Notes: a model not told the origin generated them from the letters alone. Positions 1 through 34,786 are shown, numbered from the stretch's first letter. The stretch: 34,786 nt of DNA from a virus (IMGVR_UViG_3300045988_092324:1-34786), one strand, 5' to 3'. Program-made: numbers and translations.

Positions 1-77
1 TGAACGAGTGAATAGTTCCATCCCTCGGCAGTCCCGCTGCGGTCGAGCGACGGGTCGCGGCCTTGGGATACAGAATC
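1..77. repeat. Left copy of the 77-bp terminal inverted repeat
   Basis: Read directly: 1-77 is the exact reverse complement of 34710-34786 (77/77). Identity breaks at position 78 versus 34709. Confidence 0.97.
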
Positions 78-942
78 ACCATTCCATGGCCGTGCTGTAC
101 GTATCGCTCGCCCTTGCCACGACCGTTCGAAATGACTGCAGGTAGTGGCTCATGGCAGTGTTGACCGTGCTGTGTCCCAACGCCACGGCAATGTCCTCGA
201 TGGCGGCTCCGTGCTCAAGCGAGATGGTCGCCCACGAGTGGCGCAGGCATGTCATGGGCACATGCGGCAAGTCAAAGCGGCGGCAGAAAGCGCGGAATCG
301 GCGAGCGACGGTATTCGGGTCGAGCAGACACAAACGCCCAGACCTACGCGCCCCACGTATCGCACGCAGACGTTCCAACGCAAATCGCGGCAGCTTGAGC
401 CGCCTGTCGCTGAGCTTCGTCTTGCACCCCGTCTCGACCATCTTGCCGCCGACAACGTGGAGTCCGCGCTGCACATGCACCCAGCCGCTGCGCCAGTCCA
501 CATCCTCGATTCTCACCGCACACGCCTCGCAGCGCCGCAGGCCGAGCGCGGCACCCAAGAGCACAGCGGCCTCGAATGGTTGTCCGACTATCGCCTTAAG
601 CGTCACGCGCTCTTGCTCAGCCGTGAGCGTCGGTCGGCGCACCGTGGGCTTTTTCGGCAGCTCAACCCCTTGCGTTACGTCCCAGATTCTGAGCTGATGG
701 CGGCGCAATACCCATCGGTAAATCTGGCGGAAGGTCTTGTAGGCCTTTTCCGCCGCGCCGGGAAGGTCGATTCCGTCCACCCAATCTTGTACCTGCTCGA
801 ATGTGATCGTCTCTACCTCACGCTCACCCCACTGCGGCATCAGGTGGCAGCGGATGGCGCTGCGGTAGCCCTCCAGAGTGGTTGCGCGGAGGCGCTTGCC
901 CTTGTCGGCCATGTACTCGGTTACGGCTTCTGAAAACAGCAT
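76..942 (-). CDS. Small tyrosine recombinase (XerC/D-like, 288 aa); candidate DNA invertase
   Basis: Catalytic-domain signature LGLRRCEA (Arg), GCKTK (Lys), LRHSWAT (His-x-x-Arg), LGHST (His), MSHYL (Tyr), with an N-terminal SAM-like core-binding region. The stop codon (76-78) overlaps the inverted repeat by 2 nt. Confidence 0.9.
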   Translation of the reverse strand: MLFSEAVTEYMADKGKRLRATTLEGYRSAIRCHLMPQWGEREVETITFEQVQDWVDGIDLPGAAEKAYKTFRQIYRWVLRRHQLRIWDVTQGVELPKKPTVRRPTLTAEQERVTLKAIVGQPFEAAVLLGAALGLRRCEACAVRIEDVDWRSGWVHVQRGLHVVGGKMVETGCKTKLSDRRLKLPRFALERLRAIRGARRSGRLCLLDPNTVARRFRAFCRRFDLPHVPMTCLRHSWATISLEHGAAIEDIAVALGHSTVNTAMSHYLQSFRTVVARASDTYSTAMEW

Positions 943-2950: not shown

Positions 2951-3139
2951 TATCCCTCGAATATCCCAAGTGGGCGCAAAACCCTAAGTACGGTCAGCTT
3001 ATTGCGGCACTGTCAGCGAGTTTTGCCTGATGGTCAGCATCAATAGCGAGCTGCGGCAAACTGTCTCAGTACTGCCACAACTAACAGTAGGGCTTCTACC
3101 TGCGGGTTTGCGGGGGATTATCCTAACTTGTCCCAAGTG
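2950..3139. other. Candidate attP region next to the integrase 3' end
   Basis: About 170 bp non-coding between the terminator and the int stop. Imperfect direct repeats TTATCC(N7-8)TCCCAAGTG occur at 2950-2972 and 3117-3139. GGTCAGC and TGCGGCA motifs are also repeated inside. The position is classic for attP. Confidence 0.4.
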
Positions 3140-4250
3140 CGTCGAAGACGGCGCGGACGACCTGCTCGGCGGTGGGGCGGATGTAGTGCCTGCCCGACAC
3201 GCCGGGGAGGGCGTGGCCCATCAGCATCTCTATGAGGTCCCACGGCAGGCGAAGCTCGACCTCCGCTATCGTACGCCACGAGTTGCGGAGGTTCGACCAC
3301 GGGATGTGCTCAATGCCGCGGGCGGCGCAGAGTTTCCGCCAGCGGTCGTTGCATATGCCCCGGTTCATGGGCAGCCCGTCGCCCCGGTCGCTCAGCCACT
3401 CGCGGCCCTCGGCGGCGCGGGCGGCCGCTATCTCGACGAGGCGGTCGGCGGCCTGTGGCAAGATCACGATGGTGCGGGCGGACTTGGCGGTCTTGAGGGC
3501 GCCCACCGGCTCGGTGCCGGACTGCTGCATTTGGCGGCAGATGTCGGCGGAGGCGAGGACGGTGCCGCTACGCTCCCAGCGCAGTACCTCCTCGGTGCGG
3601 ACGCCCAGCGACTCGCCCGAGCGGCAGGAGCCGAAGCACGCGAGGATGAACGCGGGCTCCAGGGGGTTGCCGCGCAGTGCGTCGAGGACGCCCAGGGCCT
3701 CGTCGAGGGTGTAGACGCGCTTTGAGCGCTCGCGGGTCTTGCGGGTGGGCATGGTGTACCTGACGCTGGCGGCGAACGGGTCGAGCGGCAGGCGGATGAA
3801 GGTCGAGACGCAGGCATAGACCTTGCGCAGGGTGAGCAGGGCGGTGTCGGCGGTGGCGGCGGGCAGCGTCAGCAGCCACCCCTGCAGCTCGACGGCGCGC
3901 AGCTGGTCGACGGGCGCCTGCCCCCAGCGGGGTCCGACGTAGTTCCTCCACGAGCGCAGTACGAGGTCGCGGGTGTTGGGGGCGAGCGTCCCCGCCTCGA
4001 CCTGTGCGGCCATCTTGGGGACGAGCCACGTCTCGTAGGCCTTGGCTATGGTGGGCACGGGGACGTCGTCGGCGTGCTCGACGTGGATGCGGTCGAGTTC
4101 CGCGCACGCCTCGCGGTAGGTGCCGTACACGGTCTTGGTCTTGCGCCTGCGGCCCTGCGGCGTGTTCTGCATCCAGCGCAGGACGTACTTCTTGCCGCGC
4201 CTCATCTCGGTCACGGAGCCCCAGACGCGGCGGCGCTGCTTCTTTGTCAT
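3123..4250 (-). CDS. int: Phage integrase (tyrosine recombinase, 375 aa)
   Basis: Basic N-terminal arm-type region (MTKKQRRRVWGSVTEMRRGKKYVLRW). Catalytic signature CRSGE (Arg), LKTAKS (Lys), LRNSWRT, MGHALPG (His), GRHY (Tyr). Confidence 0.92.
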   Translation of the reverse strand: MTKKQRRRVWGSVTEMRRGKKYVLRWMQNTPQGRRRKTKTVYGTYREACAELDRIHVEHADDVPVPTIAKAYETWLVPKMAAQVEAGTLAPNTRDLVLRSWRNYVGPRWGQAPVDQLRAVELQGWLLTLPAATADTALLTLRKVYACVSTFIRLPLDPFAASVRYTMPTRKTRERSKRVYTLDEALGVLDALRGNPLEPAFILACFGSCRSGESLGVRTEEVLRWERSGTVLASADICRQMQQSGTEPVGALKTAKSARTIVILPQAADRLVEIAAARAAEGREWLSDRGDGLPMNRGICNDRWRKLCAARGIEHIPWSNLRNSWRTIAEVELRLPWDLIEMLMGHALPGVSGRHYIRPTAEQVVRAVFDALGTS

Positions 4251-5107: not shown

Positions 5108-6397
5108 TTAGGCGAGCGGGTGGAAAATGCCCCTCTCGCGCAACTTCTCGCTCGTCCGGTACTGTTCGGCGTCGGGCACGCTGTGGAACTCGACGGTCTT
5201 GTCGTAGTTCGCCTTGACGACCTCCTCGATCTCATCGAGCGACACGCGGAAGAACTCCCTGCGCTGGTTGACTATGTTCACCTTCCTGTCCTCGAAGGCC
5301 CGGTGCAGCGCTGCCTCGAGCTTCGGGGCGTCATCGCAGAAGATGAGCGCGTGCACGTCGAAATTGAACGGGACGGACGCGTCTCCGAGCTCGCGGATGC
5401 GGTCCATCGGCTCAAGGCGCCTCGTCATCCCGATCTTGTAGACGCCCTCACCGAATGAGCCGATGTTGGAGATTACGTATACGAAGCCCGCCTTCTGGTT
5501 CGCCTCTCGGTAATCGACATCCGACACCGCCCTGTCCACGTCGTCGAGCTTCGCCTTGAGCTCAGCGGCCTTCTCCTCGAGATCGGCGCGCTCGTCGTCG
5601 CCGGCATCCTTCAGGCGTGCCGAGACGTCCTTGTACGCCTTGAGGTACTGGGAGCGCTCCTTCTCGAGCTTCTTGCGCTCGGCCGCTATCTCGCGCTCGA
5701 GTTTCCGGGCCTCGCGCTCCTGCTCGCGGGCCTCGCGCAGCGCCTCCTTCTCCTCCTCTTTCTCCTGTGCGAACTCGAAGGCCAGCTGGACCTCCTCCTG
5801 CTTGAGGAGGACGTATGCGGCGGGGATGGATATGCCGAGGGTCTTGCCGTTGCGGTTGATGGCCGCGGCCGACTTCTCGATTCTCTCGAGCGAGCGCTCG
5901 ACGTTGGTCGCCTTGACCTTGCGCACGATTTCGTCGCACTCGCCGTTGTACGCCATCATGAGCAGCTTCGAGATTTCGCGGACCATCGCCTTGCCCTTCG
6001 AGGCGCTGCCGTTGACCGTCCAGGACGTCTTGTCCGCGGCCTTGCTGAAGCTCTTGACGGCCTCCTTCTGTTTCCTGCGGCATCGGTCGAGGGCGTCCTT
6101 GTAGTGAGTCGAGTCGGCGAAGTCGAAGCGCGGGCGGTACAGGCCGAACTCCTCGACCAGCAGCTCGTCATCGAGGACGCGCGACTTGGACTCCTTTGCC
6201 TTGACGATGGCATCCAGTTTGCCGTTCTGCTTCTCCAGCTTCTCGAGCGAGGCCCTCTCCTCCTCGATTCTCTTCCTGAGGCCCTCGGCCTCGCGCCTGA
6301 GCCTATCCGCGTCCGCCATCTCCGGCGTGAGCATGGACTCGAGCTCCTCTACCCGCTGCTTGTACTCGGTCGCCTTGAACATGTCCCTGAAAGCCAT
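5108..6397 (-). CDS. DUF4041 plus T5orf172 (GIY-YIG-like, MUG113) domain protein; candidate phage-defence or superinfection-exclusion nuclease
   Basis: 429 aa. N-terminal coiled coil. Central block ...WTVNGSASKGKAMVREISKLLMMAYNGECDEIVRKVKATNVE... is typical of DUF4041. The C-terminus GFVYVISNIGSFGEGVYKIGMTRRLEPMDRIRELGDASVPFNFDVHALIF...REFFRVSLDEI is typical of T5orf172. Confidence 0.8.
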   Translation of the reverse strand: MAFRDMFKATEYKQRVEELESMLTPEMADADRLRREAEGLRKRIEEERASLEKLEKQNGKLDAIVKAKESKSRVLDDELLVEEFGLYRPRFDFADSTHYKDALDRCRRKQKEAVKSFSKAADKTSWTVNGSASKGKAMVREISKLLMMAYNGECDEIVRKVKATNVERSLERIEKSAAAINRNGKTLGISIPAAYVLLKQEEVQLAFEFAQEKEEEKEALREAREQEREARKLEREIAAERKKLEKERSQYLKAYKDVSARLKDAGDDERADLEEKAAELKAKLDDVDRAVSDVDYREANQKAGFVYVISNIGSFGEGVYKIGMTRRLEPMDRIRELGDASVPFNFDVHALIFCDDAPKLEAALHRAFEDRKVNIVNQRREFFRVSLDEIEEVVKANYDKTVEFHSVPDAEQYRTSEKLRERGIFHPLA

Positions 6398-8646: not shown

Positions 8647-8895
8647 ATGGATTCTAGCAGAGCCAAAACGTTCCAGCAGATGGCCGACGAGCTTGGCATC
8701 AGGCACAAGCTGATGTACACGCTGCGCGAGGCGTCGAGGGTGACGGGGGTGCCCTACGACACGCTGCGCATCGAGTGCAAGGCGGGCCGCCTGCGCTCGC
8801 AGCTGCCCGAGGGGCGCAAGGTGGGGCGCATGGTGCGCCCGGAATGGGTGGAGCAGTGGATCGAGGAGGGAACGCATGGCATCGAGGCTGCTTAG
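8647..8895 (+). CDS. Excisionase/MerR-type (HTH_17-like) DNA-binding protein
   Basis: RBS AAAGGAGG. The pattern MYTLREASRVTGVPYDTLRIECKAGRL...V..EWVEQWIEE is typical of excisionase-family HTH proteins. Confidence 0.7.
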   Translation: MDSSRAKTFQQMADELGIRHKLMYTLREASRVTGVPYDTLRIECKAGRLRSQLPEGRKVGRMVRPEWVEQWIEEGTHGIEAA

Positions 8896-9016
8896 GTGCG
8901 CTGCGTACATCGCGCTCCTGTTCGCGGTGTACGCGCTCATGCCTTACGTCCTGCGGGCGATGCTGCTCGCGGCGGACGGTGTCCGCGTCGTGCTCGGGAT
9001 GGGGTCGGTACTGTGA
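8876..9016 (+). CDS. Small hydrophobic protein (46 aa), translationally coupled
   Basis: Not in the track. RBS GAGGAGGG. Translation is MASRLLRCAAYIALLFAVYALMPYVLRAMLLAADGVRVVLGMGSVL. Very high GC3. Its TGA overlaps the RusA GTG (GTGA). Confidence 0.5.
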   Translation: MASRLLRCAAYIALLFAVYALMPYVLRAMLLAADGVRVVLGMGSVL

Positions 9017-9471
9017 TCGGCAGGCGATTCGCGTTCACCGTCCCGTTCGTGGCGGGCAAGCAGCGCCACAGGCTCGACCGACGCCACGCGCGGATGTACA
9101 CGCCTAACGAGACCATCCGCAACGAGGCCGCCATCCGCGACGCGGCGCTCAAGGCCATGCGGGAGGCGTACCCGGGTCTCAAGGGGATGCTGTTCCCGTT
9201 CAGGGTCCCCGTCGCGGTACGCATCGACGCGTACGGCCCGCTGCCGGAGTCGAGGCCGAAGCGCGTCACGTCGGAGCCTTACACGTTCAAGCCGGACGCG
9301 GACAACATAGCCAAGCTGGTGCTGGACGGGATGAACGGGGCGGTCTGGGGTGACGACAGCCAGGTGGTCGAGCTCCATGTCGTCAAGTGGCCCCGAATGC
9401 GCGGCATCGAACCGCACATGGACATACAGGTATATCGCGGCTGGGCAGACCCAGCCGAGGAGAAAAAGTAG
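9013..9471 (+). CDS. rusA: RusA-family Holliday junction resolvase
   Basis: The GTG at 9013 was chosen because the track N-terminus is Arg-rich. Hallmark KPDADNIAKLVLDGMNGAVWGDDSQVVEL. Confidence 0.85.
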   Translation: MIGRRFAFTVPFVAGKQRHRLDRRHARMYTPNETIRNEAAIRDAALKAMREAYPGLKGMLFPFRVPVAVRIDAYGPLPESRPKRVTSEPYTFKPDADNIAKLVLDGMNGAVWGDDSQVVELHVVKWPRMRGIEPHMDIQVYRGWADPAEEKK

Positions 9472-9487
9472 AAACGGAGACATAGAA

Positions 9488-9784
9488 ATGAAACGCAAGG
9501 CACTCAAGGAACTCATGAGGCAGGCCGTGGGCAACGTCCTCATCAACACGGAGCTCAACGCCGAGGCGTTCAAGAAGGATATCGACCCCGCAGTGCTCCG
9601 CGGCGTCGCCTACGGTATGGCGGTCGCGCCCGTGATGATGGACGAGGAGCCCATCGAGTTCGACCGCGAGTTCCTTGCCGTCATCATCGCGTATGCCAAG
9701 AAGTGCGATGACGTCTACGCCGAGAGCGGCGCCGTCGCCACGATCTCCAAGCTCTACGGATGCGAGGTGAGAGTCGATGAGTAA
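9488..9784 (+). CDS. Hypothetical protein (98 aa)
   Basis: ATG at 9488 with ACGGAGA upstream. The track ORF's upstream extension overlaps rusA. Confidence 0.6.
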   Translation: MKRKALKELMRQAVGNVLINTELNAEAFKKDIDPAVLRGVAYGMAVAPVMMDEEPIEFDREFLAVIIAYAKKCDDVYAESGAVATISKLYGCEVRVDE

Positions 9785-10694
9785 CGGGATCATCGAGTAC
9801 AAGGACGACGCGGGCATGCCCGTGAAGTTCACCTCGCAGGACATCCGCGAGCGCCTGTGCCCGAACGCGACCGAAAGCGAGCTGGCGCTGTGCGTGGAGC
9901 TTTGCAACCGCCAGCACCTGAACCCGTTCACCAAGGAGGTGTACCTGGTCAAGTACGGCAGCGCCCCGGCGAGCATCATCACTTCCTACCAGGTGTTCAA
10001 CCGCCGCGCGAACCGCCAGCCCAACTACGGCGGCATCGAGAGCGGCGTCGTGGTGCTCCGCGACGGCGAGGTCGTCAAGAAGAAGGGCTCCGCAGTCTAC
10101 AAGATGATCGGGGAGCAGCTCATCGGCGGCTGGGCAGAGGTCGCGTTCACCGACGGCAAGAAGCCCGCATACGTCGAGCTGGCGCTCACCGACTACAGCA
10201 CCGGCAAGAGCAACTGGGCGAAGATGCCGGGCGTCATGATCGAGAAGTGCGCCAAGGCCGGCGCGTGGCGCCTGGCCTACCCCGACGAGTTCGGCGGGAT
10301 GTACACGGGCGAGGAGATGGACCAGAAGGTCGAACGCGACATGCACGCCGGCACTCAGGCCGTCGAGGCCGAGAGCGTCGAGCCCGTGGCCGACCTGCAG
10401 CCCGTGCGCGAGCTGTTCAAGCCGTTCATGGCGGCGACTGGGCTCGACAGCGCCGGGGCCATGGCTGCCATCTGCGCCGCCGTGGGCTGCACGTCGGGCT
10501 CCATGCACGACATGACGCTCATGCAGGCGCGCCGCGCGGCCTCGTGGATGGAGGAGGAGATCGCGGCCCGCAAGGCGCAACCCGAGCCCGCCGTCCCCGA
10601 ACCGGAGCCCGCGCCCGCCTATGAGCCCGCGCCCGCCTATGAGCCCGCGCCCGCCGAGTACGCGACCGACGACGACCTTCTGGGAGGCTTCTGA
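9777..10694 (+). CDS. recT: RecT/Bet-family single-strand annealing recombinase
   Basis: LALCVELCNRQHLNPFTKEVYLVKYG... and WAKMPGVMIEKCAKAGAWRLAYPDEFGGMY are typical of RecT/Bet. The C-terminus carries PAPAYE repeats. Confidence 0.85.
   Translation: MSNGIIEYKDDAGMPVKFTSQDIRERLCPNATESELALCVELCNRQHLNPFTKEVYLVKYGSAPASIITSYQVFNRRANRQPNYGGIESGVVVLRDGEVVKKKGSAVYKMIGEQLIGGWAEVAFTDGKKPAYVELALTDYSTGKSNWAKMPGVMIEKCAKAGAWRLAYPDEFGGMYTGEEMDQKVERDMHAGTQAVEAESVEPVADLQPVRELFKPFMAATGLDSAGAMAAICAAVGCTSGSMHDMTLMQARRAASWMEEEIAARKAQPEPAVPEPEPAPAYEPAPAYEPAPAEYATDDDLLGGF
10605..10655. repeat. Tandem 18-bp repeat (about 2.8 copies) inside the recT 3' end
   Basis: GAGCCCGCGCCCGCCTAT at 10605-10622 and 10623-10640, with a partial third copy. 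Encodes (E)PAPAY repeats. Confidence 0.9.
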
Positions 10695-11680
10695 TGGCAG
10701 ACGAGGTTTTGGCGGTCGAGGCCGTGCCGCTCGAGGAGGACTTCGACACGCTGGTGGCGTCTCTCGCCATCGACGACACGCTCGAGGACAAGCTGGCACA
10801 GCTCAAGAAGGAAGTCGACGAGAAGCTGGCGGACTACGTGGACGTCAAGCGCATCGAGAAGGACGAGGACTTCAAGGCGGCGAAGAAGTACCGCGCGGCG
10901 GTCAACGACGTGAAGAAGCCCATCGAGGCGCAGCGCAAGGCCGCGAAGAAGAAGTACAGCGACCTGCTCAAGACGTTCGACAAGACCATCGGCGAGATCA
11001 CGGCGCCGATCGACAGGCTCTCCGATGAGTACAAGGCCGAGATCGACCGCTACGACGGAGAGTGCAGGGCCCGGCGCCTCGCCGCGCTCGAGGGCCACTA
11101 CTACGACCTCGCGGGCGAGATGGGGCCGCTGGTGCCATACGAGCGCATCGCCGACGACAGGTGGCTCAACGCGAGCTTCGGCGAGGTCAAGGCCAAGAAC
11201 ATCATCGAGCGCCGGGTGGGCGAGCTGCTGCACCAGTTCAAGTTCGTCAACGGCCTCGACTACGCGGACGAGGACGAGAGGGCGTGGGCCGTCGCGTGGT
11301 GGGCGAGGACGCTGCCGGCGGACTCGGGCGAGGTGGCGGCGGCTGTCGCCGCGCACCGCGAGGAGGTCGCCAAGGCCGCCGCGCTCGCGGCGACCTACGA
11401 GCAGGCGATGGCGCCCGCACCGGAGCCCGAGTCGGAGCCCGCGCCGCTGCCGCCCGAGCCCGCGCCGGTGCCCGCCGAGGAACCTGAGCCGCCCCTGGGC
11501 GTGCCGAGGTGCGTGCGGGTGGTGCCGTCGCGCCCCGAGCCGGATGTGGCCGAGGATGCGGCCCCGGCACCGCAGAGGGGCTACCGCGTGGTCATCGAGT
11601 GCGCCACGGCGGACGAGCTGCGCCGCGTGAGGGCCGTCATGGTCGAGAACGGCATCCACGGATACGTCGAGAGGATGTAG
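10694..11680 (+). CDS. DUF1351-like recombination-module protein (328 aa)
   Basis: Lys/Glu-rich coiled N-terminal half (KKPIEAQRKAAKKKYSDLLKTFDKTIGEI) directly after RecT, as in many RecT modules. Pro/Glu-rich linker and small C-terminal domain. Confidence 0.6.
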   Translation: MADEVLAVEAVPLEEDFDTLVASLAIDDTLEDKLAQLKKEVDEKLADYVDVKRIEKDEDFKAAKKYRAAVNDVKKPIEAQRKAAKKKYSDLLKTFDKTIGEITAPIDRLSDEYKAEIDRYDGECRARRLAALEGHYYDLAGEMGPLVPYERIADDRWLNASFGEVKAKNIIERRVGELLHQFKFVNGLDYADEDERAWAVAWWARTLPADSGEVAAAVAAHREEVAKAAALAATYEQAMAPAPEPESEPAPLPPEPAPVPAEEPEPPLGVPRCVRVVPSRPEPDVAEDAAPAPQRGYRVVIECATADELRRVRAVMVENGIHGYVERM

Positions 11681-17874: not shown

Positions 17875-17881
17875 CCCGTTA

Positions 17882-17940
17882 CCCCCTTTTTACGCTCGTG
17901 GGCAAACGCACGCGCTTGTCCACGTGCGTAAAAAGGTGGG
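17882..17940. repeat. 59-bp imperfect palindrome upstream of terS
   Basis: Arms 17882-17908 and 17913-17940 pair over about 27 bp with 3 mismatches. TTTTTACGC pairs with GCGTAAAAA and CGTGG with CCACG. Confidence 0.8.
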
Positions 17941-17987
17941 AACGTTCGCGTTTCCATATGGCTATCTAGCAGCGGAAACGTGATTTT

Positions 17988-28144: not shown

Positions 28145-30376
28145 ATGGACCTTCTCGACCTCTTGGTCAAGATCGGCGTCGACGACCAGGCATCCGGCAA
28201 GGTCGACGGCATCGCCGGCGGCATCGGCAGCAAGCTCGGGGCGGCCGCCGGCAAGGCCGCGTCGCTGGTCGCGGCCGGAGTAACGGCAGTGGCTGCCGGC
28301 GTCGCGGCGGTGACCGGCATGAGCATGAGCGCCTACGCCGCCTACGAGCAGAACGTCGGCGGCATACAGAAGATTTTCGGCAACATGGGCAAGTCCCTCG
28401 AGGACTACGCCGCCATGACCGGCCAGACCGTCGAGCAGTGCTCCGGTAAGTGGGAGCAGCTCGAGCAGGCCCAGACGACGGTGCTGGCCAACGCCGACGC
28501 AGCCTACAAGACGGCCGGCATGAGCGCCAACCGGTACATGGAGCAGGTGACCGGCTTCTCGGCCGCGCTCGTCTCCTCGCTCGGCGGCGACACGGTCAAG
28601 GCCGCCGAGTACGCCGACACGGCCATGGTCGACATGGGCGACAACGCGAACACCTTCGGCACGGCGATGGAGGACCTCCAGAACGCGTACCAGGGCTTCG
28701 CGAAACAGAACTACACCATGCTCGACAACTTGAAGCTGGGATACGGCGGCACCAGGGAGGAGATGCAGCGCCTCGTCAAGGACGCGCACGCCGTCAACTC
28801 CGCCGTGGACGAGTCGAGCCTCTCATTCGACAACATCGTGCTCGCCATCCACACGATGCAGGAGCAGATGCAGATCGCCGGCACGACCTCGCGCGAGGCC
28901 GCGACGACCATCGAGGGCTCCTGCAACATGGCCAAGGCCGCGTGGGAGAACTGGGTGACGGAGCTCGGCAAGGACGACGCCGACATGGGCAAGCTCACGA
29001 CAGAGCTGGTCGAGTCGGTCGAGACGGCGGCCTCCAACATCGTGCCGCGCGTGGCGACCATCGTGTCCACGGCCGTCGAGCAGCTCCCCGGGGTCATAGC
29101 GACGCTGGCGCCGGTCGCCGGCGAGGCCTTCATGTCCATCGCCGACAGCGCCATGTCGGCGCTCTCGGGCGCCTTCGGCGGGTTGGACGAGATAGGCGCG
29201 CAGGTCGGACCGGTGCTCTACGACGGAATCGTGAACGGCCTGTCGTTCCTCTCCGGCGCGGCGGCCGACATCATGACCCGGCTGGGCGGCTACCTGGCCG
29301 AGAACCTGCCGTCCATCATGGAGAGCGGCCTGCAGATTCTCACCGGCCTCTCAGAGTCCATAGCCGAGAACGCGGGCGTTCTTGCCGAGGGCGCGGCGAA
29401 CCTCATAGTCGGCCTGGCGCAGGGTATCGCCGACAGCCTGCCGACCATCATCGAGCAGGCGCCGGTTATCGTGCAGAACCTCGCCGGTGCGATCAACGAC
29501 AACGCGCCGACGCTGCTCGGTGCCGGCATCCAGGCAATCGTGACGCTGGCGCTCGGCATCGTGCAGGCGATACCGACGCTCATCGCCAACATCCCGGCCA
29601 TCTTCTCGGCCTTCGTCTCGGCTTGGTCGGCGCTCGACTGGCTGAGCCTAGGCAGGAACGCCATCACGTTCCTGGGCAACGGCATCGCCGGCATGGCCGG
29701 TTTCGTCAGCACGTGCGGCACCAACATCGTGTCCGCCATCCGCGGGGCCATCGCCAACCTGCCGGCGACGCTGGCGAACCTCGGCAAGGTTGCCATGTAC
29801 AACCTGCAGGGCGCCATCTCGGGCGCAGTCGGTGCAGTGAAGGGCGCGGCGCTACGCATCGCGTCGAACATCGAGTCCTCCTTCCTTGGCTTGCCGGCCC
29901 GCGTGGCCTCCATCGGCCGCAACATCGTTCAGGGCATCGCCAACGGAATCAGCGGTGCGGCCGGCGTGGTCGTCAACAAGATAACCGGCGTGGTCGGCGG
30001 CGCCATCGAGGCGGCCAAGAACCTGCTCGGCATCCACTCGCCCTCGCGCGTGTTCCGCAAGATATTCGGCTACGTGATGCAGGGCGCGGCCCTCGGCATC
30101 GACGACACGGCGGACGAGCCCGTGAAGTCAATGGAGTCCGCCGTCGGGAGGGTCGAGCGCGCCGCGGCGTTCGATGCGACGGTCAGGGCCGACGGCCCGC
30201 GTTACGGCGACCGGACCATTTCCGGCACCGGGGAGGGCGTTGTCGCGGACGGCGGCGCATCGGCCGTCATCGGCTGGCTGGCCGAGAACCTGCCCTCCAT
30301 CATCGCGGAGTTCACGCCCGTCATGGGCGAGTCGGAGTTCGGGCGCAGGGCGAGGAAGGCGGTCGCGTATGCCTGA
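28145..30376 (+). CDS. Tape measure protein
   Basis: 743 aa. Ala/Gly/Ile-rich repetitive hydrophobic core. Canonical position after the chaperone pair. Confidence 0.9.
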   Translation: MDLLDLLVKIGVDDQASGKVDGIAGGIGSKLGAAAGKAASLVAAGVTAVAAGVAAVTGMSMSAYAAYEQNVGGIQKIFGNMGKSLEDYAAMTGQTVEQCSGKWEQLEQAQTTVLANADAAYKTAGMSANRYMEQVTGFSAALVSSLGGDTVKAAEYADTAMVDMGDNANTFGTAMEDLQNAYQGFAKQNYTMLDNLKLGYGGTREEMQRLVKDAHAVNSAVDESSLSFDNIVLAIHTMQEQMQIAGTTSREAATTIEGSCNMAKAAWENWVTELGKDDADMGKLTTELVESVETAASNIVPRVATIVSTAVEQLPGVIATLAPVAGEAFMSIADSAMSALSGAFGGLDEIGAQVGPVLYDGIVNGLSFLSGAAADIMTRLGGYLAENLPSIMESGLQILTGLSESIAENAGVLAEGAANLIVGLAQGIADSLPTIIEQAPVIVQNLAGAINDNAPTLLGAGIQAIVTLALGIVQAIPTLIANIPAIFSAFVSAWSALDWLSLGRNAITFLGNGIAGMAGFVSTCGTNIVSAIRGAIANLPATLANLGKVAMYNLQGAISGAVGAVKGAALRIASNIESSFLGLPARVASIGRNIVQGIANGISGAAGVVVNKITGVVGGAIEAAKNLLGIHSPSRVFRKIFGYVMQGAALGIDDTADEPVKSMESAVGRVERAAAFDATVRADGPRYGDRTISGTGEGVVADGGASAVIGWLAENLPSIIAEFTPVMGESEFGRRARKAVAYA

Positions 30377-31184
30377 TATCGAATATGAATCGGGCATGGG
30401 GGCGGTCATCCCGCTCAATTCCGGCATCTACGTCGGCAGGCCGAACGACCTCTTCAGCCGCGAATGGGACTACAAGATCGGGTACCGCGCGCTGTCGACC
30501 GCATCGCGCGGCGCCCGCAAGGCCTCGTTCAGGGCGGTCTTCGCCGACATGGGGCTGGCCGACGAGTTCCGCCGCTGCGCGGACCTCGACGTCTCGGGCA
30601 ACACGCCCGGGACGCTGAGGGTCGGGGACTGGTTCCAGCGCTGCCTCGTCCTCGCGTCGAAGGTCGACGGGGTGCGGGACGGGCTCTTCACCGCGAAGAT
30701 CACCGTCGTGCTGCTCGACGGCCTGTGGCGCAGGGGCGTCACGACGGAGTTCGCGCCCGTCAACGGCTCGTCCGGGTACGAGTTCCTCGACCTGCCGCAT
30801 GATTTGCCGTACGACCTAGGCGTGACCCCACCGCTGCAATACGCCATCAACCCAGGCTACTCCGGCAGCCCCGCGAAGTTTGTCGTGTACGGGCCCGCGG
30901 TCAACCCTTCTGTGCGCCTGGCTGGCAATCTGTACCAGGTGGACGTGACCGTTCCCGAGGGCGGTTACATGGATATCGACCCATTGCGGCGCACCGTCAC
31001 CGTTGTCGCCGCAGACGGCACCACGATGGACGCCTTCGGCAAGGCGCACCGAGGCAGCGGGGCAGGCTCGGGAGAGTACATCTTCGAGCGCGTGCCGGCC
31101 GGCACCTGCGAGGTCTCGTGGGACAACAGCTTCGGCTTCGACCTGACGCTCTACGAGGAGGAGGGGGAGCCGGCATGGTCCTAG
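30369..31184 (+). CDS. Distal tail protein (Dit-like)
   Basis: ATG at 30369 overlaps the tape measure stop. 271 aa, in the canonical position. Confidence 0.7.
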
Positions 31185-33310
31185 TGGTGAGCGACCCGGC
31201 GGCCGGGGACGTCCGCGAGATCGAGGACTTCGAGCTCGACCTCGCGTTCGGCAGCGACGAGAACGCCCTGAAGCTCGAGGCGCGCGCCGGCGAGGCCCCC
31301 GCCGAGGGGCATCTCGTGTTCATCGACGGGACCGAGTACGGCGGCGTCGTCGACGAGGTCGCCTACGAGGCGGGCAGGGAGGCCTCCGGCACCGTCCTGT
31401 GCAAGGGCCGCACGTGGCACGGCATCCTGGCGGGCAAGCGCCTGCTCCCCGACTCGGGCAGCGGGTACCTCGCGGTGAGCGGCAAGGCGGGCGAGGTGCT
31501 CGCGTCCCTCATATCCCGCATGGGGCTGTCCGGGCTGTTCTCGGCAGCCGTGGACGATACGGCGGTCAGCTATACCTTCGACCGCTTCGCGGACGGGTAC
31601 GGCGGCCTGAAGGCCCTGGCGGAGGCGAACGGGCGCAAGGTCTCGATGCGCCGCCTAGGCGGCAAGGTCGAGCTATCGCTGCCCCCGGTCGTCGACTACG
31701 CGGACAAGGTCGACTCGGACCTGCTCGACTTCACGCTGACGAGCGTCCACCGCTGCGTCAACCATCTGGTGTGCGCCGGCACGGGCGAGCTCGAGAACCG
31801 CGCCGTGGTCCATTTCTACGCCGACGCGGCGGGCAACGTCAGCCACACCCAGAGCCTCTTCGGCGTCGACGAGATATGCGCGCTCTACGACTACAGCAAC
31901 GCCGACGAGGCGAAGCTCGAGGAGGAGGGCGGCAAGAAGCTCAGGGAGTACCAGACCCGGGGCAGCGTCGAGGTCGACGCGCACGAGGATATCGACGTCG
32001 ACGTCGGCGACATCATCTCGGCGCGCGACAACGCGCACGGCAGGACCGTCAGCGCGACCGTGGTGAAGAAGATCGTGCAGGTCTCGCGCGGCGTGGCAAC
32101 GTATAGGTATGAGGTCGGCAGCGAGACCACGACGAAGAACTCGTCCAGCGCGATCGCCGACGGAGGTGGCGGGCACGCTTACCTGGCGGGAAAGGGCCTG
32201 AAGCTCGAGAACTACACGTTTAGTGCGGAGGTCGACGCGGAATCGCTCAAGGCCGTTGAGGCCAAGGCCGACAAGGCCGTAACAGACGCCTCAAGCTCGC
32301 TCCAGACGTGGGCGCAGGCGGATATCGCCATGGGAGAAGTGTCAACGCTCACGGAAGGCTCTAAGGCCACCGCTTCGCTCTCAGGCGAAGGGCTGGTCAA
32401 GACACTCTCGCTCGGAATTCCACGCGGCGCGACCGGCATCCAGGGTCCGAGGGGCGAACGCGGGGCCACTGGTCCCCAAGGCCCGCAGGGAATCAAGGGT
32501 GACACCGGCGCGACAGGCTCGCAGGGACCTACGGGACCACAAGGCCCCAAGGGAGCCACTGGTCCGCAGGGTCCCAAGGGAGACACGGGCGAGCAGGGAC
32601 CGCAGGGCGTTCAGGGAAAGCAGGGGCCGCAGGGCATACAGGGCGAGACGGGGCCGCGCGGTCCGCAGGGATTGCAGGGCATCCAAGGTCCCAAGGGAGA
32701 CACGGGCGAGGGCTTCTCCATCTCGAAGGTATACGCGAGCTACGACGCGATGCGGGCGGGGTGGAAGACGGACGGCGTGAAGGTCGGCGGGTTCGCGGTC
32801 ATCGGCTCGAATGTCGAGGACCCGCACAACGCCGAGCTGTACGTGAAGTCGGCAGACGGCTACTCGCTGATCGCCGACATGAGCGGCGCGACCGGCGTCA
32901 AGGGCGAGCAGGGCCCCACGGGCCCGCAGGGCCCGGTCGGCGCGACCGGAGCGGCGGGGGCAACTGGGCCGCAAGGCCCGAAGGGAGCCACCGGCGCAAC
33001 CGGTCCGCAGGGCCCCAAGGGCGAGACGGGGGCAACCGGCGCGACCGGCGCGAAGGGCGCGACCGGCCCCACGGGGCCGCAGGGCGTGAAGGGCGAGCAG
33101 GGCGAACGCGGCCCGCAGGGTATACAGGGCCCGAAGGGCGAGAAGGGCGAGCGCGGCGACTCGGGCGTCACCGTACCGCTGTCGGGGTTCTTCTCGCTGA
33201 CGGTGGACGCCGACGGCAACCTCTGGTCGCACGTGGCGGACGGGGCGGCAGCCCCGCCGCTCTCATACGACTCGTCCACTGGCGAGCTTTACTATGAGAT
33301 AGGTGAATAA
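31175..33310 (+). CDS. Tail-tip/fibre protein: Sipho_Gp37-like N-terminus plus two collagen-like (G-X-Y) blocks
   Basis: ATG at 31175 after GAGGAGGAGGGGG. The N-terminus is [33 protein letters not shown] runs lie at 32426-32710 and 32885-33166. Confidence 0.8.
32426..32710 (+). repeat. Collagen-like G-X-Y triplet block 1 (95 triplets)
   Basis: Uninterrupted GGN-NNN-NNN periodicity ([28 protein letters not shown]...). Confidence 0.95.
32885..33166 (+). repeat. Collagen-like G-X-Y triplet block 2
   Basis: [34 protein letters not shown]...GERGDSG. Confidence 0.95.
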
Positions 33311-33312
33311 TC

Positions 33313-33999
33313 ATGGCGAGATATTTAGTGGGCAACATCAAGGGCCCCAAGGGTGACACCGGCGCGACAGGACCACAAGGGCCCGCCGGCGCGCGAGGGG
33401 CCACGGGAGCCACGGGCCCGCAGGGTCCGAAAGGCGACGCGGGCGCGACAGGACCGCAAGGGCCAACCGGCAAGCAGGGGCCGACAGGCCCCACTGGCCC
33501 CGCGGGCTCGCAAGGACCGCAGGGCATCCAGGGGCCTAAAGGTCCGACAGGCCCGCAGGGGCCGCGAGGCCCGCAGGGGCCGTCTGGCGGCGAAATCAAG
33601 GACACGCGCAACGACAACCAGCCGCCGAGCTGGTACATGAAGAACCACGCGAATGAGACTGTAGTCGAGTTCAAGAATGCCAAGGTCATCGGGCTTTCGA
33701 GCAGCGAGACCTATGCGACCCTCGTCACCTTCGTGCAATGGGGCGAAAGTTCCGGCGGGTACCCGAAGCAGGTCGCTATGAGCGGCGAAGACATATGGTG
33801 GCGGCGCGGCGGGTCGGACTCTTCGTGGACGGCGTGGCAGCACATCCTCGATATCCTCGACCCGAACACGATGTGGATCATAGCCCATCGTGTCGGCGAG
33901 TACTTGGAGACGGACGGCTCGTTTGACCCGAACAACATCGGCGGTACATGGGTGCGGGCACCGAGTATCGGGCCGCACACGTGGCTGAGAACTAGTTAA
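33313..33999 (+). CDS. Tail fibre with collagen-like stalk and globular C-terminal (receptor-binding-like) domain
   Basis: 228 aa. G-X-Y block at residues 11-94, then a Trp-rich globular domain ([30 protein letters not shown]). Confidence 0.8.
33343..33594 (+). repeat. Collagen-like G-X-Y triplet block 3 (84 residues)
   Basis: [34 protein letters not shown]...GPQGPSGGE. Confidence 0.95.
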
Positions 34000-34009
34000 A
34001 GGAGAGAAC

Positions 34010-34240
34010 ATGGCAAAGACAGAGAATTTCACCCACTACACCTGCGACCGATGCGGCGCTGACGCGTACCTCCAGCAAGGTGCTGCGGCGACTGGTGACT
34101 GGCGCGAGGTCGAGCGCTTCGACCAGTACGGCAGCAGGGCCACGCGCCTGCTGTGCAAGGGGTGCACGGACGCGTACAAGAAGCTCGCCGCCAAGCACGA
34201 CGGCGAGTTCCAGCAGTTCATGAGCAACGCGAAGGAGTAG
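34010..34240 (+). CDS. Small zinc-ribbon protein (76 aa) between fibre genes
   Basis: RBS AAAGGAGAG. Cys motifs are CDRCGA...CKGC. Confidence 0.65.
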   Translation: MAKTENFTHYTCDRCGADAYLQQGAAATGDWREVERFDQYGSRATRLLCKGCTDAYKKLAAKHDGEFQQFMSNAKE

Positions 34241-34244
34241 TAAC

Positions 34245-34786
34245 ATGGCATTTGAAATCGTGGACGGCATGACGGGGACCAAGCACATCAGCTCAGACGA
34301 CCTGTCGGCGCTGAACGTCGCGACCATCGGCAAAGCAAACTGCGTGCTGGAGTACGGTGACGACTTCAAGCTCACGATGGCGAGCGCGAACAGCGCGACG
34401 CTCGGCACCGGTGTAGGTATGGTCGGCGGCAAGAGATTTTGGAACCAGGCGGCAACCTCGCTGACGGTCCAGTCTGGTACGCAGGGCCAGAAGCGTAACG
34501 ACCTCGTCGTAGCCCGCTACGCGAAGACCAGCGCGGGCATCGAGAGCATCACGCCCGTCGTCGTCAAGGGCACGCCCAGCACGGGGACGGCGGCGGACCC
34601 CGCGACGACCTCCAACGACCTGAAGCTCTGGCGCATCCCGCTGAACGGCATCAGCGTCGGCACGCCCGTGAGGCTCTTCGACCCCGTGGCCTCGCTCGCG
34701 ACCCTCGGGGATTCTGTATCCCAAGGCCGCGACCCGTCGCTCGACCGCAGCGGGACTGCCGAGGGATGGAACTATTCACTCGTTCA
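34245..34786 (+). CDS. Fibre/tail-tip-like protein, 5' part only (open at the window end); the last 77 nt are the inverted repeat
   Basis: Not in the track because it has no stop. ATG at 34245 after GAAGGAG. 180 codons open to the window edge. Translation is MAFEIVDGMTGTKHISSDDLSALNVATIG...QKRNDLVVARY...GDSVSQGRDPSLDRSGTAEGWNYSLV. Confidence 0.75.
   Translation, partial: MAFEIVDGMTGTKHISSDDLSALNVATIGKANCVLEYGDDFKLTMASANSATLGTGVGMVGGKRFWNQAATSLTVQSGTQGQKRNDLVVARYAKTSAGIESITPVVVKGTPSTGTAADPATTSNDLKLWRIPLNGISVGTPVRLFDPVASLATLGDSVSQGRDPSLDRSGTAEGWNYSLV
34710..34786. repeat. Right copy of the 77-bp terminal inverted repeat
   Basis: Exact reverse complement of 1-77. Lies within the open fibre-like ORF. 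Confidence 0.97.

Follow-up and report, generated by a model that had tools for sequence, protein, structure and literature searches.

A putative Rin-type invertase and the outer boundaries of a receptor-binding-head shufflon in a Collinsella siphovirus

Recombinase gene and terminal repeat

IMGVR_UViG_3300045988_092324:1-34786 is a virus contig of 34,786 nucleotides (nt), the whole of which is referred to below as the window. At its left end lies the gene of a small tyrosine recombinase, designated rin, whose stop codon touches one arm of an inverted repeat, and at its right end the gene of a tail protein runs into the other arm. The present analysis concerns this recombinase, the short site that it adjoins and the alternative C-terminal segments (cassettes) of the tail protein, as seen in the window and in related prophages and metagenomic contigs (designated by L numbers).

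The rin open reading frame (ORF) occupies positions 76..942 on the minus strand, starts with ATG, ends with TGA at 78..76 and encodes 288 amino acids (aa), in agreement with the preliminary description of this DNA, which had recognized a 288-aa tyrosine recombinase. Pfam assigns Phage_int_SAM_3 to residues 3-56 (5.6e-10) and Phage_integrase to residues 125-270 (2.5e-11) of the protein; these tyrosine-recombinase domains stand alone, with no serine-recombinase domain among the Pfam matches. Since the SAM-like domain begins at residue 3, an arm-binding domain cannot be accommodated at the N-terminus. The protein was assigned to phrog_1 'integrase' in PHROG (8.9e-44), and the nearest solved structures by sequence in the PDB are the XerA-like 4a8e (8.5e-10), XerD 1a0p and 5hxy. 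The Xer and integron-integrase models of NCBIfam, however, score rin at 16-49 bits against cut-offs of 220-435 (XerA, the best of the Xer models, gives 48.6 bits where 220 are required, and XerD 36 against 330), and rin is therefore a 'simple' tyrosine recombinase outside those families. The profile search that had been proposed as a check thus speaks against an Xer enzyme, and no second integration system was found for rin. No Rci-specific family was found among the NCBIfam matches and the resemblance to Rci is functional only.

The residues R136, K174, R234, H257 and Y267 of rin are invariant across the family alignment (A1), which includes relatives 36-93% identical. The histidine of the HxxR motif of XerD aligns with Thr231 of rin, so that the full catalytic set reported earlier is reduced to five of six positions; the R234-H235 dyad was probably taken for HxxR. 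To judge from the alignment, Thr231 is likely tolerated, since most of the family keeps the same substitution. Homologues of rin are numerous (n=443 at E<=1e-10), and the 'integrase' of phage PMBT6 is 37% identical to it across 95% of the query (E 3e-36). Rin is an armless tyrosine recombinase and is predicted to be the invertase of a shufflon, for which it would act as the catalyst.

The arms of the inverted repeat, 1-80 and 34707-34786, are the extreme two ends of the window, and the repeat is exact for 77 nt (1-77 versus 34710-34786). As had been noted, the rin stop overlaps the left copy by 2 nt. The arms are composite. Their inner part is a 13-nt crossover site (rix core), which reads GATTCTGTATCCC on the minus strand at 65..77, where it overlaps the rin stop, and recurs in the inverted orientation at 34710..34722 on the plus strand, where it lies inside the tail-protein gene and encodes D-S-V-S. 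The outer part is the 64-nt start of one variable (Rv) cassette, here called cassette A, which is present at 1..64 on the minus strand, the window ending inside it, and again at 34723..34786 on the plus strand, in frame with the constant part (Rc) of the tail protein. The peptide of cassette A begins SVSQGRDPSLDRSGTAEGWNYSLV, its initial residues being encoded by the core, and the full Rc-A fusion, reconstructed with contig L002, has 262 aa.

This division was traced from the homology between the window and other loci. On the left, homology to 24 prophage loci ends at 64-66; on the right it ends at 34723 in L009, the one locus covering that side. With homology stopping at the core left and right, only this inner core of 12-13 nt (GATTCTGTATCCC) is a conserved site, and the outer 64 nt are the variable start of a cassette. 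The core ATTCYGTATCCC occurs twice exactly in the window, with one further match at one mismatch, while shuffled windows hold a mean of 0.06 core matches with up to one mismatch.

Across the family, conservation covers 16 nt, TAGCATTCCGTATCCC, and the positions flanking them carry no information; the rix site is one-sided, without an inverted half-site. The core of the window phage is ATTCTGTATCCC / TTCTGTATCCC, the family consensus being TAGCATTCCGTATCCC for the site and TTCCGTATCCC for the core. Variant bases at core positions 9-11 go with the downstream cassette, one upstream flank being paired with up to four variants, which places the crossover inside TTCCGTAT or immediately to its left. 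At core position 4, a C/T variant is clearly unlinked to the downstream cassette and its upstream linkage is inconsistent between lineages, so that it bounds the crossover only loosely.

The length of the repeat probably has a separate origin. A usual maximal k-mer of the SPAdes assembler is 77, and when a de Bruijn assembler has run both ends of a contig into the same sequence in opposite orientation, the first and last k-mers are reverse complements of each other. The 77-nt length was thus probably set by the assembler k-mer. We read the repeat as a 13-nt recombination core followed by the first 64 nt of one cassette, truncated by the assembler, and so as mostly an assembly footprint and not a genome end.

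Cassette array in related phages

A scan for rin loci, made with one genome per species, returned 24 loci with a recombinase 88-94% identical to rin, 23 of them labelled Collinsella, and the linkage of recombinase, site and tail gene for which a survey of related phages had been suggested was found in all 24. The recombinase of two MEGAHIT contigs from other samples (L001 and L002) is 100% identical to rin. L002 matches the window repeat and runs on through a 106-aa cassette A with its stop codon, three cassettes being seen in this contig, while L001 turns to unrelated sequence right after ...GTATCCC. A near relative, the 2.6-kb SPAdes contig L029 (rin 94%, Rc 96% identical), spans the entire shufflon: Rc is followed by six cassettes of 79-106 aa in mixed orientation, with a core before each, and then by rin, to whose stop the last site is adjacent. 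Cassette A occurs there as a single copy in a silent position, and it is single-copy in all three relatives that cover it. Either 'end' of the window is run through into further cassettes by L002, L029 and L035.

Loci that run through the array hold 4-17 sites. L009 has 5 cassettes; the shufflon of the complete Collinsella genome NZ_AP031421 (L008, positions 8868-11424) has 12 sites; and that of a C. aerofaciens contig (L015, 8868-12686) has 17 sites and cassettes, 16 of which are silent and all in one orientation. In the 24 loci every cassette starts with SVS, SVC or SVF in the Rc frame, as encoded by the site, and cassette lengths are 43-118 aa, with the sole exception of one of 266 aa in L016. 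Where the next site has the orientation of the cassette before it, that cassette is closed by a stop codon, usually a TAG that is the 5' end of the site.

Order and orientation of the same cassettes differ between related prophages (L004, L006, L007 and L008); L006, for instance, has the cassette beginning SVSQVPSFWGDV... joined to Rc, and the other three carry it in a silent position. In independent metagenome assemblies the ends of four contigs fall at the rix core, at its last base in L005, L017 and L025 and one base past it in L014, and other contigs end 53-125 nt beyond a core. Breaks at cores are consistent with branching of the assembly graph caused by inversion heterogeneity in those samples.

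Two relatives have lost the recombinase. The equivalent of window positions 148-925 is deleted in L035 (2495-4050) and rin is lost with it; in L034 (827-1700) rin and most cassettes are gone and a truncated cassette remnant stays. The receptor-binding protein (RBP) of both is intact, 'frozen' with one head.

Receptor-binding protein

Rc, the constant N-terminal part of the RBP, comprises 155 aa and is encoded at 34245..34709 on the plus strand by an ORF that is still open where the window stops on the right (phrog_13141/9994). Its gene is the last of the tail module, in which it is preceded by a tape-measure gene (28145-30373) and collagen-like fibre genes (31118-33307 and 33313-33996); across the junction it is followed by holin and endolysin genes (1095-2799).

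Homologues of Rc number 2057 at E<=1e-5. The best 120 of these are 85-99% identical in Rc, have a total length of 215-274 aa and carry dissimilar C-termini from residue ~157. Among these 120, the 71 proteins that match the junction motif show 48 distinct 12-residue starts, and by our own grouping the set would contain roughly 20 or more cassette types. Cassettes of the arrays recur in such fusions: all six of L029 and all five of L009 were found as tails of full-length RBPs, two of them at 100% identity, including the one that is silent beside rin in L009.

Two of the proteins, P0121 and P0122, are 262-aa Rc-A fusions. In the AlphaFold2 (AF2) model of P0121 the cassette (residues 160-262) has a predicted local distance difference test (pLDDT) score of ~88, and its best PDB matches in Foldseek are the RBP head of phage TP901-1 (4ios_A, 2f0c and 4hem; TM-scores, TMt, of 0.45-0.68), the p2 RBP head being matched as well. 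The match to 4ios_A has a TMt of 0.67 and a root-mean-square deviation (rmsd) of 3.4 A over 103 columns, at E 1.5e-3, within an rmsd range of ~3.1-3.4 A for the top matches; the fold comparison rests on one cassette type (A). The target would thus be an RBP of about 235-274 aa. As modelled, the shuffled part is a predicted receptor-binding head and not the collagen-like fibre, which corrects the preliminary description, where the fibre had been named as the target. Searching an Rc-Rv profile against PDB sequences gave no match even at E<=10, and the full-length RBPs are without a Pfam match except for a sub-threshold MSP1_barrel in one cassette type.

Other genes of this neighbourhood were also recorded. 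Directly upstream of Rc lies a 76-aa gene (34010-34240, plus strand; phrog_28750) whose product has four Cys in two CxxC motifs; a 76-77-aa gene, alike in position and length, lies at the same place in L034 and L035. The 76-aa product of the window phage may serve the RBP as an adaptor or in its assembly. The fibre genes at 31118-33307 and 33313-33996 (plus strand) contain long collagen-like Gly-X-Y tracts, which are the source of most direct-repeat families in the window.

Integration and other features of the window

A separate integrase of 375 aa is encoded at 3123..4250 on the minus strand and was recognized by Pfam and PHROG. It has ~65 extra N-terminal residues relative to rin, to which it is 27% identical in alignment A1. 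Just 3' of this gene lies the approximate core of the phage attachment site (attP) at 3055..3079, reading GTGGCAGTACTGAGACAG on the minus strand: homology between window and prophage stops at 3079 in six loci of Collinsella chromosomes. The integrase itself had been correctly described, while the attP, which had been sought at 3123-4250, is placed at ~3055-3079 by the junctions between prophage and host. Insertion takes place at the 3' terminus of a host gene of 276 aa whose translation ends ...HMWQY*, the last codons (...WQY*) being supplied by the phage (for example L009 5047-5877); from its translation alone this gene looks ThiD-like. No tRNA was found at the attachment site in a search of the window and five prophage loci.

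Because the attP is intact, the window represents the excised, circular form of the phage. Integration is served by the 375-aa integrase and its attP, to which the prophage junctions map, and rin is superfluous for it, as had been proposed.

Two further features were observed. Between the integrase and the early region, a gene at 5108-6397 (minus strand) encodes a 429-aa protein whose N-terminal half is a long coiled coil and which has DUF4041 and T5orf172/MUG113 domains; a moron, or a role in defence or superinfection exclusion, is conceivable for this gene. At 17877-17944, just downstream of a stretch of low guanine-plus-cytosine (GC) content at 15-17 kb (GC 0.56-0.57 versus ~0.66 elsewhere), two 33-nt arms that are 85% complementary and spaced by 2 nt make up a near-perfect hairpin or palindrome, which could be an origin, an operator or a terminator.

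Interpretation

We consider it very probable (roughly 0.9) that rin is a Rin-type invertase of a shufflon by which a phage tail protein has its receptor-binding head, at the C-terminus, swapped. The layout of the complete genome would then consist of Rc ending in an asymmetric site, a series of promoterless cassettes, each behind a site and each closed by a TAG stop whose bases also belong to the following site, and finally an inverted site adjoining the rin stop. Rin would recombine any two inverted sites, the DNA upstream of each site staying in place and the downstream DNA being exchanged, so that a new cassette would join Rc in frame through the site-encoded Ser-Val-Ser and rin itself would never be disrupted by inversion. 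The choice of cassette would be expected to change host range.

The window would accordingly correspond to the excised circle of a ~36.6-kb temperate Collinsella siphovirus minus a ~1.8-kb block of cassettes, both sizes being estimates from L029 and related contigs of 36-39 kb. It contains the two outer boundaries of the shufflon only, the invertible DNA being absent. From both boundaries the assembler would have entered cassette A and gone no further than one k-mer (77 nt), giving rise to the apparent terminal inverted repeat, and both orientations probably coexisted in the sampled population.

Several points weigh against this interpretation. The window holds 64 nt of one cassette, and the body of the shufflon was reconstructed from L002, with its identical rin, and from L029, with a rin of 94% identity. 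Inversion in the sampled population is suggested indirectly, by the assembly pattern and by differences between samples, and the ends of the window would look no different if inversion had ceased in a genome that carries cassette A twice, in opposite orientations. Catalysis by rin is a prediction, and the canonical HxxR histidine is Thr231 in this protein. On the structural side the Foldseek E-values are modest (1.5e-3), and the Rc part of the P0121 model (residues 1-159) is unreliable, with a pLDDT <50 and a shallow alignment.

Among the other explanations, the one that survives best accepts the array as real and attributes its rearrangement to host homologous recombination, or regards it as an evolutionary relic; the phage would be fixed in a state with cassette A present twice, in inverted orientation, and rin would be inactive or have another role. 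The threonine in place of the HxxR histidine and the intact RBP of the two relatives without rin are both compatible with it. The stretches shared between sites, however, are 11-16 nt, too short for efficient RecA-type exchange as established knowledge has it, and the breakpoints are precise to within the core. The recombinase is moreover conserved and always adjacent, with R-K-R-H-Y invariant over a range of 36-93% identity, and a fixed two-copy state does not agree with the single cassette A of the three relatives that cover it. Finally, reads of Bifidobacterium phages carrying Rin showed inversion at rix sites (PMC6109161). This explanation is regarded as very unlikely.

Slightly less credit still is given to a two-state inverton of the Gin kind, in which the 77-nt repeats would themselves be the recombination sites around one segment with two alternative fibre ends. 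A perfect 77-nt inverted repeat lying beside a recombinase gene at one end and within a tail gene at the other is what such a switch would present, yet conservation does not extend past the 13-nt core, the outer 64 nt differ between loci that share rin, there are six cassettes with six sites in L029 and up to 17 elsewhere, and 77 nt is a common assembler k-mer, as is generally known. What had been expected of this locus, a tyrosine recombinase with a Gin-like tail switch, holds in substance, with the difference that the switch is a multi-cassette shufflon and not a two-state flip of the 77-nt repeats.

A true terminal inverted repeat of a linear genome, with an unrelated recombinase such as an Xer-like resolvase or a second integrase, is scarcely credible in spite of the position of the repeat at the exact sequence ends and the Xer-like top matches of rin among solved structures and NCBIfam models, given that three contigs read through the 'ends' into more cassettes, that rin scores far under the curated Xer cut-offs, that there is no dif-like or att-like partner, the site being found instead 4-17 times within tail-gene cassettes, and that integration is explained by the 375-aa integrase and its attP at ~3055-3079.

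Implications

The Rin-type shufflon proposed here represents no new class of mechanism; its additions are modest, namely a new host genus, the very large arrays, the 'frozen' relatives from which rin has been deleted and the lesson on contigs with inverted terminal repeats. Collinsella, a very common genus of the human gut, joins Bifidobacterium and Eggerthella as a host of the Rin shufflon, and the system is widespread there, recombinase clusters numbering in the hundreds and RBP clusters in the thousands. A single phage can carry about six to seventeen swappable receptor-binding heads, which bears on host-range prediction and on phage-host dynamics in the gut.

As for the assembly, the perfect terminal inverted repeat of the window is the sign of an invertible region dropped by the assembler, neither a genome end nor a recombination site, and a genome that would pass as 'complete' is short of ~1.8 kb, by the estimate based on L029, encoding determinants of host range. 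If this is true, contigs with inverted terminal repeats of exactly one k-mer could serve as a general detector of active invertons in viromes; such contigs could be mis-scored as complete linear genomes.

Why inversion takes place and deletion does not was a question left open by Mavrich et al. (PMC6109161), and, if the present interpretation is true, the one-sided site would explain inversions without deletions by analogy with the sfx sites of R64. It is also possible, at a little less than even odds in our judgement, that Collinsella phages carry the largest phage-encoded RBP shufflons yet seen, with up to 17 heads on one stem, one armless recombinase, a 16-nt one-sided site and a crossover of ~8 nt (TTCCGTAT).

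Comparison with known systems

The Gin, Cin and Pin invertons and the Min shufflon (Mu, P1, e14 and p15B) have the same outcome as the rin system, alternative C-termini of tail fibres or RBPs, with the recombinase gene adjacent. Their enzymes are serine recombinases dependent on an enhancer to which Fis binds, and Gin, Cin and Pin are two-state switches, whereas rin is a tyrosine recombinase. The R64 shufflon is closer in its operation: Rci, which has no arm-binding domain, carries out multiple inversions at short sfx sites conserved in one arm and thereby provides pilV with alternative C-termini. An armless tyrosine recombinase, one-sided sites and a constant N-terminus with alternative C-termini are thus shared with rin; R64 differs in being a plasmid system, in having a conjugative pilus adhesin as its target and in the unrelated sequences of its sites, and Rci belongs to the IntP2 subgroup while rin best matches Xer-like or 'simple' recombinases. 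The rin system belongs to neither the Rci nor the Gin/Cin/Pin/Min enzyme family, though it works like the R64 shufflon. XerA, XerC and XerD share with rin the two-domain 'simple' architecture (SAM-like core-binding and catalytic domains), but rin reaches 34-49 bits against cut-offs of 220-335, no dif site is involved, and the gene lies in a tail module beside its own array of sites.

The closest precedent is the Rin shufflon described in the Bifidobacterium breve and B. longum prophages Bb423phi1, Bl157phi1 and Bl30698phi1 (Mavrich et al. 2018, PMC6109161). In these phages an armless tyrosine invertase acts on an 11-bp asymmetric rix site, TTCCCTAACCC, Rc has 168 aa and was reported to resemble the RBP of phage 1358, the Rv cassettes have 95-100 aa and TP901-1-like heads, and inversions at the rix sites are visible in reads; Rin was explicitly called by these authors the first phage-encoded tyrosine invertase (PMC6109161). 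A Rin shufflon with the repeat ttccgtat is also carried by clade 1 prophages of Eggerthella lenta (2022, PMC8778435). The combination of a tyrosine recombinase with a tail switch, which had been thought unusual, was therefore already known from both genera.

In the Bifidobacterium and E. lenta systems, as in the window phage and its relatives, an armless recombinase lies at one flank and a canonical integrase elsewhere in the genome, promoterless C-terminal cassettes stand behind short asymmetric sites to which inversions map, and the heads are TP901-1-like; the constant RBP N-terminus at the other flank has 168 aa in Bifidobacterium and ~157 aa here. The sites are alike as well. The family-consensus core TTCCGTATCCC agrees with the Bifidobacterium site TTCCCTAACCC at 9 of 11 positions and the core of the window phage, TTCTGTATCCC, at 8 of 11; the first 8 nt of the consensus are identical to ttccgtat of E. 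lenta, the window phage (ttctgtat) differing by the T at the fourth position (7/8). PMBT6, an isolated phage of B. thermophilum, has the same layout, its 37%-identical 'integrase' being followed by TAGCTTTCCGTAACCC sites and small inverted genes; its core, TTCCGTAACCC, agrees with the consensus at 10 of 11 positions and with the window phage at 9 of 11. The differences lie in the enzyme, which is only 37% identical to that of PMBT6, the sole Bifidobacterium-phage homologue compared; in the host genus, Collinsella, which in the searchable literature is nowhere mentioned together with shufflons; and in the size of the arrays, which reach 12 sites in a complete Collinsella genome and 17 in a C. 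aerofaciens contig, as compared with ~5 in Bifidobacterium.

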